Source: a virus | Taxonomy: Duplodnaviria; Heunggongvirae; Uroviricota; Caudoviricetes | Virus record (IMG/VR): IMGVR_UViG_3300044712_002337 | Coordinates: 18,564 to 82,563 of that record | DNA: 64,000 nucleotides | Strand: one strand, 5' to 3' | Shown here: positions 4,472 to 60,965 of the stretch, one piece after another | How positions within the stretch are numbered: position 1 is the first letter of the stretch | How the letters are laid out: every line of letters begins with the position of its first letter | Position numbers and translations under genes: made by a program | Notes under the pieces: generated by a model | Databases searched by the model: none | Told to the model about the DNA's origin: nothing | What the model saw: the letters and a program-made list of their open reading frames with translations, nothing else

Positions 4472-4768
4472 TCAGCGGATGACGTCGACCATCGCCTTGA
4501 TGGGCGGGGCGGTGACGCCGGCCAAGTCGGCCGGGGTGAGGAAGGCGGCATCGAGCACGTCCATTGCCGCCAGCAGGCTCTGTACCTTTTGGGCGGACAG
4601 GTGGTTCAGGTCGCCGGCCCCCTGGTAGTCCGGGTCGGTCAGGGTCGCCACCCCGAGCGACTCCAGCCGGGCGCGGGTGGCCTTCAGGTCGAACACGGTG
4701 TCGTACAGGGCGCGGATTTGCTGCACCTCGGTCGACAGGGCGTTCATCTGCTGGGGGGTGATGGGCAC
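4472..4768 (-). CDS. Hypothetical virion-module protein, 98 aa
   Basis: Tightly packed in the operon; protein-like composition. Confidence 0.7.
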   Translation of the reverse strand: MPITPQQMNALSTEVQQIRALYDTVFDLKATRARLESLGVATLTDPDYQGAGDLNHLSAQKVQSLLAAMDVLDAAFLTPADLAGVTAPPIKAMVDVIR

Positions 4769-18175: not shown

Positions 18176-18565
18176 ATGTCCGCGAACCCCCAGGCGGGTC
18201 CCGCGAGCCTGCCGGCCTTTTGGGAGGCGGTGTTCGCCGGGGTGGAGGGCCCGGCCGACGTGCCGGCGGTGGCCCGCCTGTTGGCCGCCGCCGGGTTCCG
18301 GCGGGAGTCCCTGGTGCTGTCGCTGCTGGGGAAGCGGCGGTTCGGGTGGGAGCCGCAGGCGGCCGGCCCGGACGGGGGCTGGCTGCTCCACCACCTGACC
18401 GCCCTGCGGGCGGACGGGAGGGGGTACGGGGAGACGCTGCTGGCCGGGCTGCGGCTGGCGCGGGGGTGGGGGGACGGGCTGGCCCGCGAGCTGGGCGTGC
18501 GGACGCGGACCCTGGACCGGCGGGGCGAGCCGCACACCTGGCTGAGCCTGGTGGTCCCGTTCTAG
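18176..18565 (+). CDS. Degenerate TIGR02996-like protein
   Basis: AFWEAVFAGVEGPADVPAVARLL; AAGGTG SD inside the repeat element. Confidence 0.6.
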   Translation: MSANPQAGPASLPAFWEAVFAGVEGPADVPAVARLLAAAGFRRESLVLSLLGKRRFGWEPQAAGPDGGWLLHHLTALRADGRGYGETLLAGLRLARGWGDGLARELGVRTRTLDRRGEPHTWLSLVVPF

Positions 18566-57139: not shown

Positions 57140-58015
57140 ATGGTGACCAAGACGACCGCGTGGGGCGTAATCAGCTTCTGGTCGCTGTCGGAGTCTTGCG
57201 ACCGGCGGGTGCTGAACGAGGGGTGGTCGGCGCTCGGTTTGAACAAATACGTTCCGGACGCCCCGAATGATTTCGCCGTGCTCAAGCGGGCGCTCGAACA
57301 GGTGTACCCGAAGGCGGGCACCATCCCCCGCCAGCTCCGCACGAAGACCGGGTTCTTCCTGCTCGACGAGACGCGGGGCGTGGACGCCAACCAGTACGGC
57401 GGGACGACCACGGTGAAGCTGCGGCCGGGAACCAACGGGCTGGACTTCGCCAACACCGACGGGTCGGAGTTCGTGTACGACGACCGGGCGATGGAGGTGG
57501 TGAGCCGGTTCCGCGAGGGGCAAGGGCGGCTGAGCGCGGCCCAACTGGCCAAGGCGATGACGGCGGTGCTCACCCAGGAGTACCACGCGGTGGCCCTTCG
57601 CCCGAGCGGCGGAATCTATTGGATGTCAGGTCATCACAATGACAACTGGCGGGCGGCCGCCGAGGTGGTCGAGCGGGCGTGCCCCGGGTCGAGCGTGTAC
57701 TTCGTCGAGAACGGGGCCGACACGGACTCGGTCCGCGCCGTGCGGGACGCGGTCATCCACTCGGTCGAGGTGCAGTCCCGCCAGATGGTGAAGGAGATGG
57801 AGGAGGGCGACCTGGGGGAGCGGGCCCTCCGCACGAAGATGACCGAGATTTCCCGGCTGGCCGACCAGGTGGTCGAGTACGAAGCCATCCTGGCCGAGTC
57901 GCTGGAACCCCTGCGGGCCCGCCTGGAGGAACTCCGCCAGGCCCACGGCACGGCCCAGCTCCTCGCCTCGGTCGGCGGGACCGCCTCCACGCAGAAGGAG
58001 TACTCGTATGCGTGA
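57140..58015 (+). CDS. AAA/vWA-associated protein (DUF3150/DUF6744-like, tentative)
   Basis: LRPSGGIYW motif, coiled-coil C-terminus, lies between the AAA ATPase and vWA genes. Confidence 0.6.
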   Translation: MVTKTTAWGVISFWSLSESCDRRVLNEGWSALGLNKYVPDAPNDFAVLKRALEQVYPKAGTIPRQLRTKTGFFLLDETRGVDANQYGGTTTVKLRPGTNGLDFANTDGSEFVYDDRAMEVVSRFREGQGRLSAAQLAKAMTAVLTQEYHAVALRPSGGIYWMSGHHNDNWRAAAEVVERACPGSSVYFVENGADTDSVRAVRDAVIHSVEVQSRQMVKEMEEGDLGERALRTKMTEISRLADQVVEYEAILAESLEPLRARLEELRQAHGTAQLLASVGGTASTQKEYSYA

Positions 58016-60965
58016 GTTCGACCCGCCCGCGGAGGGGTTGGACCCCCTGGCCGCCCTCGACCGGGAGGCCAAGCGGCAGGCCGCCGAGGAGGCCGCCCTG
58101 GAGAAGCACCGCCGGGTGGTGGGCCGGTTCTACGTGCTGGGGGCCAGTCCGAACCGGGCGTTCCTGACGGCCCTGGCCCTCCAGCTTGAGCCGAAGGTGG
58201 ACTGGGAGGCTCAGACCGCGTGGACCGACGGGAAGAACATCGGGTTCAACCCGGACTTCGTCGGGGGGCTGAGCGACACGCAGTGGGACGCGGTGACCGC
58301 CCACGAGATTCTGCACGTGGCCTGCCTCCACCACGTGCGGCGGGGCGACCGCGACCCGGAGCTCGCGAACATTGCATGTCTGCGGGGTGACGCACTGGTA
58401 TTAGGGGTAGACGGCAGCAGTCGTAGAATCGAGAACTTAGCAATCGGCGACACAGTAATTGGGATTCGTGGTGGCAAACTAGTCCGGACGAAAGTCCTAA
58501 ATGTGACTAGCAAGTATGCACCCGAGCTAGTTAGTGTTCGCTGTGGCGAGGACGAGGTTCTCTGCACGCCGGAACACCTCTTTCTCACCAGTGATGGGTA
58601 TGTGGAAGCCTCACAGCTCGGTTCCTCCGGCAACGCGCCATGGCAAGTTGTCCGTTTCAGAGAAGGCGTTTCTCTCGAAACATTGCCATACCATGACCAA
58701 TGTGGAGTTAGCAACGAAACTTGGAAGAACCTACAACTCAATTGCGAGTTACTTCAGGAAGTGCCCAAGGACAAAAATCGTCAAACGCAGAAATGTTGCA
58801 CCGTTCCTGAAAATGAGTGCCGAGACTCTGGCTTACATGGCAGGTATTATCGACGGCGAGGGGACGGTAACAGTAAGTGGTCGAGGCCAGGCCCAAATAT
58901 CAGTAGCGAACACGTCCAACAAACTGGCCGGATGGATGGAGAGCAAGGGGTTTGGGCTCAGAAAAACTCGCAATATAAAGGGGCGGCCATACTGGAATAT
59001 GGTACTGGGCGGGTATTCCATCATCGAGCCTCTGAAGAAGCTATTGCCCTATCTCGTTATCAAGCGTCAGCAAGCCGAGCTGGTAATCGAGTATATCGAT
59101 CTGCGACTGTCGCAAGGGCATCGCTTCACGCTCTCGGCGCGGATGGAGGAGATTATTCGCGAGATTCGGGCCTTGAACGAGCGGCGTACTCCTGCCGAGT
59201 TCAAAAACATCAAGCTGGAGCCCGAGTATATGACATCACCACCTGCTGCGGCTCTTTCATCGCCAACGGATTCGTCGTCCACAATTGCGATTTAGCTATT
59301 AACTCCATCCTGGTGGACGCCAACTTCGATTTGCCGGCGTGCCGCCTCCTGCCCGGGGAGGGCGAGTACAAGGACCTGCCGCCGGGCCTGGGTTTTGAGG
59401 ATTACTATGCTCGCCTGCAGCAGGCTCGCAATGAAAACCCCGGAAAACAGGGGAACGGGGCTCCACAGGGCGGCGGGGCGAAGGGCGACCCCGGCGGGTG
59501 TGGCGAGGTGCGGGACGGGGGCTCCGACGCCTCCTCTTTGGCGGAAGCGGAAGCGAACGCCAAGGTGATGGTGGCCCGCGCGGAACAAGCGGCTAAAGCC
59601 AAAGGAGAACTGGGGGCCGGTCTGGAAAGAATGACGGGGGCGGCTTTGCGACCCCCGTCCAACTGGAAGGACGAGCTTCGAGACTTCGTCTCCCAGAAGG
59701 CCAAGGAAGACTATTGTGTCGCCCCGGAAACACTAGTCTTGAATGCTGAATTAAAATGGGTGACGGCTGGAAGCCTCAAGCCAGGCGACCGTCTGTTAAC
59801 AGTAGAAGAGTACCCGGCTTCCGGTCGGTGTCATCGTAGAATGTGTGAAGCGGTAGTTCAAGGAGCTTATATTTTTGAAGCACCGCGAATGGTTATGGAG
59901 AATGATAAGGGGCCACCAATCGTGTCGACGCTTGACCACAAGTATTTAGCTGCTACGGATGGCTCTGGTAACCGTTGGGTTAAAGCGAAAAGACTGAAAG
60001 TGGGGCGGAAAGTCAAGTTTTTGGTCGACCCATGGAGTGACGACCGTTCGGATTCATGGCTCGCTGGCATGTATGACGGAGAGGGATATCTAACCGCAAA
60101 CCCTCCCGACCGCCCAAGGTCGGGCGTGAACCTTGGTATTGCCCAAACCGCTGGTCCGGTACTCGACCGCGTCTTAGAAACTTTTGATAGTCTTGGACTA
60201 AACGCGGGTCAGTATGTGAAGCCTCGACTGTTGGTGAATTCCGCTGAGGCGGGGAGACCAGTCAGTAAGAAGGATTGTTACTCGATTGGGATTAATAGAT
60301 TATCGAATATCCTTCGTCTGCTTGGTGTTTACCGACCGATTCGATTGCTGACAAAGTTTCAACATATGATGAGAGAAAAATGGTTTACTTTTCCTCGCCC
60401 CGGTAAAGCGACCATCACAAAACTTGAACGAGTTGGCGACGGGCCTGTCGTATCTCTTAAAACCTCGACGGGCACACTCATAACGAACGGAGTTGTTAGC
60501 CACAACTGCTGGGCCCACCCCAACCGCCGGTTCATCGCCCAGGACCTGTACCTGCCCGGCCTCCACTCGGAGACCCTGGGCACCGTGGCCGTCGCCGTCG
60601 ACTGCTCGGGCTCCATCGACGAGACCCTCCTGGCGGAGTTCGGGAGCGAGCTCCAGGACATCCTCTCTTGTTTTCCGAAGACGAAACTCCACACCTTTTA
60701 TCACGACGTGGACGTCCACAAGGAAGAGGTGTGGAGTTCCGAAGACGGGGAACTGAAGCTGAGCCCGGTCGGGGGCGGGGGCACCTCCCACGTCCCGGTG
60801 TTCGAGCGGATGGCCGCGATGGACGAGCAGCCGGCGTGCATCGTATGTTTGACCGACTGTTATACTACTTACCCGACGAGTGACCCGGGTGCCCCTGTCC
60901 TGTGGGCGTGCTTCGGGAACGACGGGGCGAATCCGCCCTTCGGGAGGGTGATTCACGTGCGGTGA
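58008..60965 (+). CDS. Metallopeptidase (HExxH)-vWA protein (DUF2201-like) with two inteins
   Basis: TAWTDG, AHEILHVAC.H, NIA|CDLAIN, DY|CWAHPNRR, VAVDCSGSI, GGGGTSH, CLTD. Confidence 0.92.
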   Translation: MREFDPPAEGLDPLAALDREAKRQAAEEAALEKHRRVVGRFYVLGASPNRAFLTALALQLEPKVDWEAQTAWTDGKNIGFNPDFVGGLSDTQWDAVTAHEILHVACLHHVRRGDRDPELANIACLRGDALVLGVDGSSRRIENLAIGDTVIGIRGGKLVRTKVLNVTSKYAPELVSVRCGEDEVLCTPEHLFLTSDGYVEASQLGSSGNAPWQVVRFREGVSLETLPYHDQCGVSNETWKNLQLNCELLQEVPKDKNRQTQKCCTVPENECRDSGLHGRYYRRRGDGNSKWSRPGPNISSEHVQQTGRMDGEQGVWAQKNSQYKGAAILEYGTGRVFHHRASEEAIALSRYQASASRAGNRVYRSATVARASLHALGADGGDYSRDSGLERAAYSCRVQKHQAGARVYDITTCCGSFIANGFVVHNCDLAINSILVDANFDLPACRLLPGEGEYKDLPPGLGFEDYYARLQQARNENPGKQGNGAPQGGGAKGDPGGCGEVRDGGSDASSLAEAEANAKVMVARAEQAAKAKGELGAGLERMTGAALRPPSNWKDELRDFVSQKAKEDYCVAPETLVLNAELKWVTAGSLKPGDRLLTVEEYPASGRCHRRMCEAVVQGAYIFEAPRMVMENDKGPPIVSTLDHKYLAATDGSGNRWVKAKRLKVGRKVKFLVDPWSDDRSDSWLAGMYDGEGYLTANPPDRPRSGVNLGIAQTAGPVLDRVLETFDSLGLNAGQYVKPRLLVNSAEAGRPVSKKDCYSIGINRLSNILRLLGVYRPIRLLTKFQHMMREKWFTFPRPGKATITKLERVGDGPVVSLKTSTGTLITNGVVSHNCWAHPNRRFIAQDLYLPGLHSETLGTVAVAVDCSGSIDETLLAEFGSELQDILSCFPKTKLHTFYHDVDVHKEEVWSSEDGELKLSPVGGGGTSHVPVFERMAAMDEQPACIVCLTDCYTTYPTSDPGAPVLWACFGNDGANPPFGRVIHVR
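58377..59285 (+). mobile_element. Intein 1 (303 aa), no endonuclease motifs in frame
   Basis: CLRGDALV...IENLAIGD...CTPEHLFLT...VYDITT...FIANGFVVHN|C; the middle of the in-frame sequence has no nuclease motifs. Confidence 0.92.
58594..59295 (+). CDS. LAGLIDADG endonuclease with N-terminal HTH, in the +1 frame inside intein 1
   Basis: SEKAFLSKHCHTMTNVELATKLGRTYNSI; LAYMAGIIDGEG; LLPYLVIKRQQAELV. Start uncertain (ATG 58594, 58600 or 58693). Confidence 0.85.
   Translation: MGMWKPHSSVPPATRHGKLSVSEKAFLSKHCHTMTNVELATKLGRTYNSIASYFRKCPRTKIVKRRNVAPFLKMSAETLAYMAGIIDGEGTVTVSGRGQAQISVANTSNKLAGWMESKGFGLRKTRNIKGRPYWNMVLGGYSIIEPLKKLLPYLVIKRQQAELVIEYIDLRLSQGHRFTLSARMEEIIREIRALNERRTPAEFKNIKLEPEYMTSPPAAALSSPTDSSSTIAI
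59715..60506 (+). mobile_element. Intein 2 (264 aa) with in-frame LAGLIDADG
   Basis: CVAPETLV...STLDHKYL...WLAGMYDGEG...VVSLKTSTGTLITNGVVSHN|C. Confidence 0.92.

Follow-up and report, generated by a model that had tools for sequence, protein, structure and literature searches.

The stretch of viral DNA considered here, referred to below as the window, comprises 64,000 nucleotides of a member of the Caudoviricetes (positions 18,564 to 82,563 of the IMG/VR record IMGVR_UViG_3300044712_002337, which is 176 kb long and of which the window is a part), and contains a gene for a protein with a putative metallopeptidase domain (DUF2201_N) and a VWA-like DUF2201 domain, interrupted by two inteins. The first of these, intein 1, appears to be a composite mobile element in which two genes overlap: we consider it very probable (roughly 0.85) that it is a mini-intein with a spacer, over which lies a free-standing homing endonuclease gene (HEG) that is read in the +1 frame and translated separately. 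This reading is based on the openness of both frames, the depletion of stop codons, the conservation of the nuclease frame and the folds predicted for the two products.

The splicing frame and the nuclease frame of intein 1

The host gene is recognized by its Pfam matches to DUF2201_N (E 9.6e-31) and DUF2201 (E 1.3e-23). Its open reading frame (ORF) is continuous, with no stop across the nuclease DNA, and the extein computed after removal of both inteins is a protein of 418 residues. The two stretches that interrupt it have a guanine-cytosine (GC) content of about 50%, as against about 68% in the exteins (Table 1).

Table 1. Features of the host gene and its inteins (positions in the window)
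Feature	Position	Strand	Details
Host gene, DUF2201_N putative metallopeptidase and VWA-like DUF2201	58008-60965	+	985 codons, two inteins
Intein 1, class 1 type, host frame	58377-59285	+	303 codons; C1...TPEH...VYDITT...HN, then Cys
Hint-N half, blocks A and B	58377-58640	+	intein residues 1 to ~88
Homing endonuclease gene, +1 frame	58600-59295	+	ATG 58600, alternative ATG 58594; TAG 59293-59295
Three-helix helix-turn-helix (HTH)-like N-terminal module, +1 frame	58654-58761	+	AlphaFold2 helices at nuclease residues 7-16, 22-29 and 33-42, predicted local distance difference test score (pLDDT) 84-89
Host-frame reading of the nuclease DNA (spacer)	58701-59162	+	intein residues 109-262, stop-free
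I-CreI-like LAGLIDADG core, +1 frame	58819-59178	+	AlphaFold2 pLDDT 92-98
Motif LAYMAGIIDGEG	58828-58863	+	+1 frame, in the LAGLIDADG core
Conserved Lys of LVIKRQQA	59062-59064	+	+1 frame, in the LAGLIDADG core
Hint-C half, blocks F and G, ending HN	59166-59285	+	AlphaFold2 pLDDT 85-90
Intein 2, canonical, in-frame single-motif LAGLIDADG	59715-60506	+	from translation; phrog_5046 match at host residues 681-727

In the host frame, C1 lies at 58377-58379 and Cys +1 at 59286-59288, the TPEH of block B occupies intein residues 64-67, and the terminal HN residues 302-303. When intein 1 is aligned with 12 homologues (13 inteins in all), C1, H302 and N303 show no variation, at least 90% of the sequences have H67, and the Hint-C half follows the conserved pattern VYDLTT..G.F.ANG..VHN. 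The AlphaFold2 model has a pLDDT of 77-95 over residues 1-80 of Hint-N, and a Foldseek search with the host-frame model of the intein returns the mini-inteins Ssp DnaB and Mtu RecA with a probability of 1.0 and template modelling scores of 0.74-0.78 (normalised to the target); the Pfam matches of this frame to Hint and Intein_splicing fall under the curated cut-off. The middle part has no match in Pfam or PHROG, and over residues 109-262 its pLDDT is below 50 (block means 23-46). The original prediction, made from the DNA letters of the window, had described intact splicing blocks (C1, TPEH, VYDIT and HN followed by Cys) separated by about 200 codons of non-nuclease sequence, and this description holds, as each of the blocks is in its place and the codons between them are open throughout. 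By these sequence features and the predicted Hint fold, intein 1 can be assigned to the class 1 inteins, and would be expected to splice.

No stop interrupts the +1 frame between 58531 and the TAG of the nuclease, whose last base falls 10 nucleotides beyond the C-terminal splice junction, and this frame encodes an HTH module followed by LAYMAGIIDGEG...LLPYLVIKRQQA. Its product matches LAGLIDADG_3 of Pfam at the cut-off and phrog_5046 with an E of 6.3e-15, while the HTH module has a weak PHROG match to a D5-like transcriptional regulator. The ATG at 58600, which is the start homologous to that of relatives beginning with MWK, is embedded in the Gly-Tyr-Val codons that end Hint-N, just downstream of the TPEH of block B. 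AlphaFold2 predicts the whole nuclease with a pLDDT of 87, and its core as an alpha-beta-beta-alpha-beta-beta-alpha fold (helix 62-75, strands 76-80 and 86-92, helix 95-103, strands 109-112 and 118-125, helix 127-139); the top 40 Foldseek hits of this model are all I-CreI, I-MsoI or I-CvuI, with a probability of 1.0. Among PDB entries, a profile search picks out I-MsoI (E 5.5e-26) and I-CreI (about 1e-8); the DGEG and PYLxIK motifs fall in register with those of I-MsoI/I-CreI, and LAYMAGIIDGEG aligns with their FLDGDG/FVDGDG motif. Residues D73, G74, G76 and K143 of the nuclease are invariant across 17 relatives, and the acidic residue that ends the LAGLIDADG helix presumably corresponds to the catalytic Asp, D20 in I-CreI. 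The HTH-LAGLIDADG nuclease with a single motif, and its stop 10 nucleotides past the junction, had both been predicted, and the fold and profile matches bear the first of these out. From its single-motif architecture the nuclease is expected to act as a homodimer; a complex prediction with two copies scored 0.73 against 0.54 for the best control, just short of the margin, and is not used as evidence.

The openness of the host frame over this nuclease is difficult to attribute to chance. The third plus frame contains 11-12 stops across the overlap, and the number of host-frame stops predicted by shuffling the codon order of the nuclease frame, or by resampling its synonymous codons, is 9.5-11.2, when none is observed; no stop-free replicate was obtained among 20,000 + 20,000 + 1,500. 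A Poisson estimate of the host frame being open by chance gives 1e-5 to 7e-5, and the figure of about 1e-4 in the original prediction was thus of the right order of magnitude. Intein 2 can be taken as an internal control for intein 1, because it lies in the same gene, has a similar GC content and carries its nuclease in-frame: as had been expected, translation confirms this canonical layout, and its two other frames contain 19 and 21 stops. One and the same DUF2201 gene therefore holds both architectures, an overprinted intein 1 and a canonical intein 2.

As to which of the two frames is under selection, identity per frame served as the measure in place of dN/dS, because at the 57% protein identity of the closest allele (locus L002) synonymous sites are saturated. 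The DNA shared by the window and its allelic relatives is 50-58% identical when read as nuclease and 24-28% when read as host-frame peptide; the corresponding values are 43-44% for Hint-N and 38-45% for the N-extein, so that the nuclease is better conserved than either. Comparison and models together support the view that the nuclease frame is the conserved one and that the host-frame middle would be constrained only to avoid stops.

Recurrence of the layout

When the +1 product was used in an exhaustive HMMER search, 3,972 relatives were retrieved, and the five best have 198-233 residues. Among the homologues listed, the start is either the same ATG or lies within 1-2 residues of it; several open with MWK, and many close with SSTT, the form that the VYDLT of block F takes in the +1 frame. 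In the contigs of the two best matches the arrangement is identical, with the same host gene, the same site, an open host frame and the nuclease in the +1 frame; in both the ATG lies within the G-Y(TAT)-V/A codons that end Hint-N, shortly after the TPEH of block B, and the stop is in block F or just beyond the splice junction. A single-protein query against viral contigs gave no close relatives, and tblastn against GenBank phages gave just free-standing LAGLIDADG genes at about 30% (in Caulobacter, Gordonia and Streptomyces phages) and none that was nested.

Nested loci, that is, nucleases lying within an intein in another frame, were gathered by alignment-based scans of viral, genome and metagenome contigs, L119 being counted as nested on its open host frame alone. 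The result is a set of 34 non-identical loci, the window included, in which the GC content of the nuclease ORF ranges from 0.30 to 0.61. In all 34 the host frame is the nuclease frame -1 and Hint-N is found upstream, and in 33 of them block G, with HN and Cys or Ser, was located downstream. In none of the other 33 do Hint-N, nuclease and Hint-C share a frame or does the intein frame contain a stop, and it was these two outcomes that the original prediction had named as telling against it.

The DUF2201 gene accounts for 12 of these loci, 11 at the site of intein 1 (site a, window included) and one, L011, at a site b. Another 13 are found at an EAxA/C site of a GT1 glycosyltransferase gene (the slash marks the splice junction) and two at a different site of that gene; two lie directly after a P-loop-like GxGK, and five in other genes. 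The two inteins at GxGK (L088:1993-3963 and L117:2047-4116) start right after this Walker A-like motif (GVGK/C and GIGK/C) and end in HN/S. When the DUF2201 genes are aligned, site a is occupied in the window, L004, L081, L091 and L108 but not in L011; L011 is the one gene with site b filled, and the window the one with site c, that of intein 2, which is unoccupied in the 5/5 other genes. The occupancy of the intein sites of DUF2201 is sporadic.

In 13 loci studied in detail, the stop-depletion test that had been proposed for the homologues gave about 120 expected host-frame stops and 0 observed, while the third frame of these loci contains 6-31 stops per locus, near expectation. In the relative frame found here, a stop in the host frame requires a nuclease codon ending in T before one that begins with AA, AG or GA, since only then are T/AA, T/AG or T/GA formed across the codon boundary. 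The nuclease of intein 1 has 52-55 codons that begin in this way, and none is preceded by a codon ending in T, when 18-21% of its codons do end in T; in the 13 loci this combination is found in 0/707 cases. In the genetic code NNT and NNC are always synonymous, and because of this every host-frame stop can be removed without any change in the nuclease. Reasoning from the code table, such a synonymous removal of stops would explain why the layout is uniformly +1, and the opposite overlap would be disfavoured, as in it a Met followed by a codon starting with A forces a TGA.

Four further loci, L032, L043, L067 and L120 (GC 0.60-0.72), were considered as cases of overprinting and rejected, since their second frame is open and there are no Hint blocks, which indicates chance openness. 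In three of them (L043:2415-5741, L067:2661-3716 and L032:2774-4231, GC 0.64-0.69) this chance frame lies over a free-standing LAGLIDADG gene. That GC-rich open frames can mimic overprinting should be borne in mind in automated screens.

In a tree of 113 nucleases, all of those that are nested fall within one well-supported clade of 51 members, which also holds true free-standing genes with many stops in their other frames. Such a mixture is consistent with free-standing endonuclease genes having invaded inteins; support for many of the inner branches is weak, and on them a single origin and multiple origins are not separable. Two genes of the LAGLIDADG superfamily occur within a few kb of each other in each of L020, L023, L025, L028, L040, L056 and L073, and in L028 one of the two is nested in an intein and the second (near 4670) is free-standing.

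A more far-reaching idea, which we regard as tentative and as having well under an even chance of being right, is that the HTH-LAGLIDADG nucleases form one lineage of HEGs specialised in inteins, to which the endonuclease slot would have offered a safe harbour at no fewer than six sites in unrelated phage genes, reached either together with an intein or by transfer from one intein to another, and always in the +1 frame through the constraint of the code. If this were true, overprinting would be a stable and rule-governed lifestyle of HEGs, rather than an occasional accident during the evolution of canonical or split inteins.

Translation of the nuclease and alternative readings

The start of the nuclease is conserved, and the signals that surround it vary among the loci. 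In 19 of the 34 loci a stop of the +1 frame is found 0-5 codons upstream of the ATG, directly before it in three, and a Shine-Dalgarno (SD)-like motif precedes the ATG in 12, five of which (L028, L081, L090, L092 and L127) have a strong SD of the AGGAGG type, written in Gly-Gly codons of the intein. In L028:2900-2922, L081:2445-2470 and L090:2455-2479, AGGAGG/GGAGGA stands 5-8 nucleotides upstream of the nested nuclease ATG, and the ribosome-binding site of the nuclease is in these cases encoded in the coding sequence of the intein. In two glycosyltransferase inteins (L006:2885-2922 and L008:2888-2925) the host-frame codons L-L-Y-N-S spell out an extended -10-like element, TGTTGTATAAT, which ends 7 nucleotides upstream of the nuclease ATG; it could serve as an internal promoter, from which a leaderless or near-leaderless mRNA for the nuclease would be made. 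Taken together, the conserved start and the SD of 12 of the 34 loci suggest that the nuclease may be translated separately; in intein 1 itself an SD is absent.

The nuclease could otherwise be reached by a programmed frameshift, in which ribosomes would move to +1 after block B and then either return to the host frame ahead of block F, which would yield a canonical fusion intein, or stop at 59295, which would yield a fusion of N-extein, Hint-N and nuclease. Entry of this kind is physically possible in intein 1, which lacks an SD and whose +1 frame has 21 open codons ahead of the first ATG (23 ahead of ATG 58600), but the +1 stops that lie so near the ATG in over half of the loci leave little or no room for it, and argue for initiation at the nuclease ATG. 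Moreover, the aligned junction regions have no conserved slippery motif, and a double shift is without precedent; for these reasons we consider a frameshift improbable.

Some observations weigh against separate translation from a functional gene in intein 1. No SD-like motif was found before ATG 58594 or ATG 58600, nor before the start in the closest relatives, L002 and L003, when most other genes of the same phage do carry one, and no promoter-like site was found for the window copy; as the SD is absent, translation of this nuclease may be weak. Furthermore, with a closest homologue just 57% identical, this particular copy may have been inactivated recently.

These points, the missing SD above all, bring in a decaying intein, in which real compensating indels would have left a +1 ORF that is recently dead, and in which selection on the host gene alone would maintain the open host frame. 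A dead frame, however, would gain stops and diverge, and yet the +1 frame is open in 34/34 loci, is better conserved than the splicing domain and the extein, and keeps the residues of the catalytic motif invariant; its conserved starts, the SD motifs of 12 loci and a fold predicted at pLDDT 87 point in the same direction. The arrangement is, in addition, older than a divergence to less than 35% identity, and it spans several host genes. Decay is thus about as improbable as the frameshift, and the stop depletion, together with the 50-58% as against 24-28% identity of the two readings, lends support to the original prediction, which had opted for selection on both frames over decay or a sequencing slip.

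An assembly artefact, by which a canonical one-frame intein would have acquired two compensating base errors (+1 near 58620-58650 and -1 near 59220), would keep the total length and would put the apparent switch points at the expected domain boundaries, as is the case, but we give it hardly any credence, because such errors cannot erase the roughly 10 host-frame stops that are expected and absent (0 of >40,000 shuffles being stop-free), and the same two frames recur in 33 other independent contigs of different samples and GC, with no homologue in a single frame.

Returning to the mini-intein with a separately translated HEG, we infer for intein 1 a course of splicing, separate translation, dimerisation and cleavage, and also an origin of the arrangement. 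Hint-N (~88 residues) and Hint-C (~40 residues) would be joined by a structureless spacer of ~175 residues that needs nothing more than freedom from stops; the precursor would be translated at its full length and the intein excised, which would restore the DUF2201 metallopeptidase/VWA protein. In the +1 frame the DNA of the spacer would act as a free-standing gene for an HTH module and a single I-CreI-type LAGLIDADG, expected to form a homodimer, and its product would most likely be made by internal initiation on the host mRNA at ATG 58600 or 58594. During co-infection, alleles that lack the intein would be cleaved by the nuclease, and in the course of repair intein and nuclease would be copied together into them (homing). 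As for the origin, a free-standing endonuclease gene would most likely have settled in the endonuclease slot of an intein, and it would have persisted there as the stops of the host frame were erased by synonymous changes from NNT to NNC.

Comparison with known systems

The layout of an intein with an out-of-frame nuclease is already described for other inteins. The Ssp (Synechocystis) DnaX intein is attributed such a nuclease in Gorbalenya (1998), as cited in bioRxiv 10.1101/2025.01.02.630785, and in the cyanobacterial dnaX intein a LAGLIDADG endonuclease in an overlapping “+2 ORF” has been analysed, including its dN/dS (Phillips, DeSimone, Gogarten, bioRxiv 10.64898/2026.09.14.751524), and was read by its authors as that of a mini-intein secondarily invaded by a free-standing endonuclease gene (bioRxiv 10.64898/2026.09.14.751524). 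Like intein 1, the dnaX intein is contiguous, with splicing blocks in the host frame, a middle predicted to be disordered and a nuclease of confident fold in a second ORF, which in that case is under purifying selection; it differs in its host, a cellular dnaX as against a phage DUF2201 metallopeptidase/VWA gene, the two nucleases being compared here by description. The clade found here, in contrast to the dnaX case, occupies many host genes and sites, mostly in viral contigs.

The inteins of actinobacteriophages include an antisense LAGLIDADG, an antisense Vsr-like and a same-strand frame-3 endonuclease VII-like gene (Gosselin, Arsenault, Gogarten, bioRxiv 10.1101/2025.01.02.630785), in terminase, DNA polymerase, minor capsid and ThyX hosts (bioRxiv 10.1101/2025.01.02.630785). 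In these, as in intein 1, a separate ORF for the endonuclease overlaps the slot that the splicing blocks enclose, and the middle of the host-frame product is unstructured (by prediction in intein 1); none of them is a same-strand +1 HTH-LAGLIDADG of a DUF2201 or glycosyltransferase gene. An origin from free-standing HEGs was proposed, and annotation pipelines are said there to overlook such elements (bioRxiv 10.1101/2025.01.02.630785).

Our results support the view of these 2025-26 preprints that the number of such inteins is underestimated, gene callers reporting just one of the two ORFs, as well as the model of intein origin in which the splicing domain comes first and the endonuclease invades later. 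Intein 1 is a clear and statistically strong case of a single DNA segment that specifies two proteins under unlike kinds of selection, in which one frame must keep a fold and the other need only stay open. Where an intein is annotated as decaying, or as a mini-intein with a long linker, its other frames deserve to be checked, and the family is also a source of compact I-CreI-like nucleases whose targets, the extein junctions, are predictable.

In the split inteins known as “fractured genes” (Dassa et al., 2009, as cited in bioRxiv 10.1101/2025.01.02.630785), a free-standing endonuclease lies between the two halves, and, going by that citation, splicing element and HEG form one mobile unit, as they would here; the host there, however, is described as two ORFs joined by trans-splicing, when in our case it is one continuous ORF of 985 codons. 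Intein 1 was itself considered as a split intein or fractured gene, and this single ORF rules it out.

The nucleases of group I introns, I-CreI, I-MsoI and I-CvuI, share with the nuclease of intein 1 the single LAGLIDADG motif, the core fold and the aligned DGxG and P(Y/F)LxxK, and differ from it in that the latter has an extra three-helix module at its N-terminus and is encoded inside an intein, not an intron. Hidden insertions of HNH endonucleases of the ShiLan type, devoid of splicing domains, are found in phage methylase genes (PMC11855218); there too an out-of-frame endonuclease ORF lies over a stop-free in-frame insertion and has no obvious ribosome-binding site, but the insertion stays as a loop in the host protein, while that of the DUF2201 gene is flanked by Hint blocks.

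Set beside all these systems, what is new in the present case is the DUF2201 host gene, the recurrence of a clade of HTH and I-CreI-like nucleases in the same frame across many host genes, and the presence of overprinted and canonical inteins side by side within one gene.

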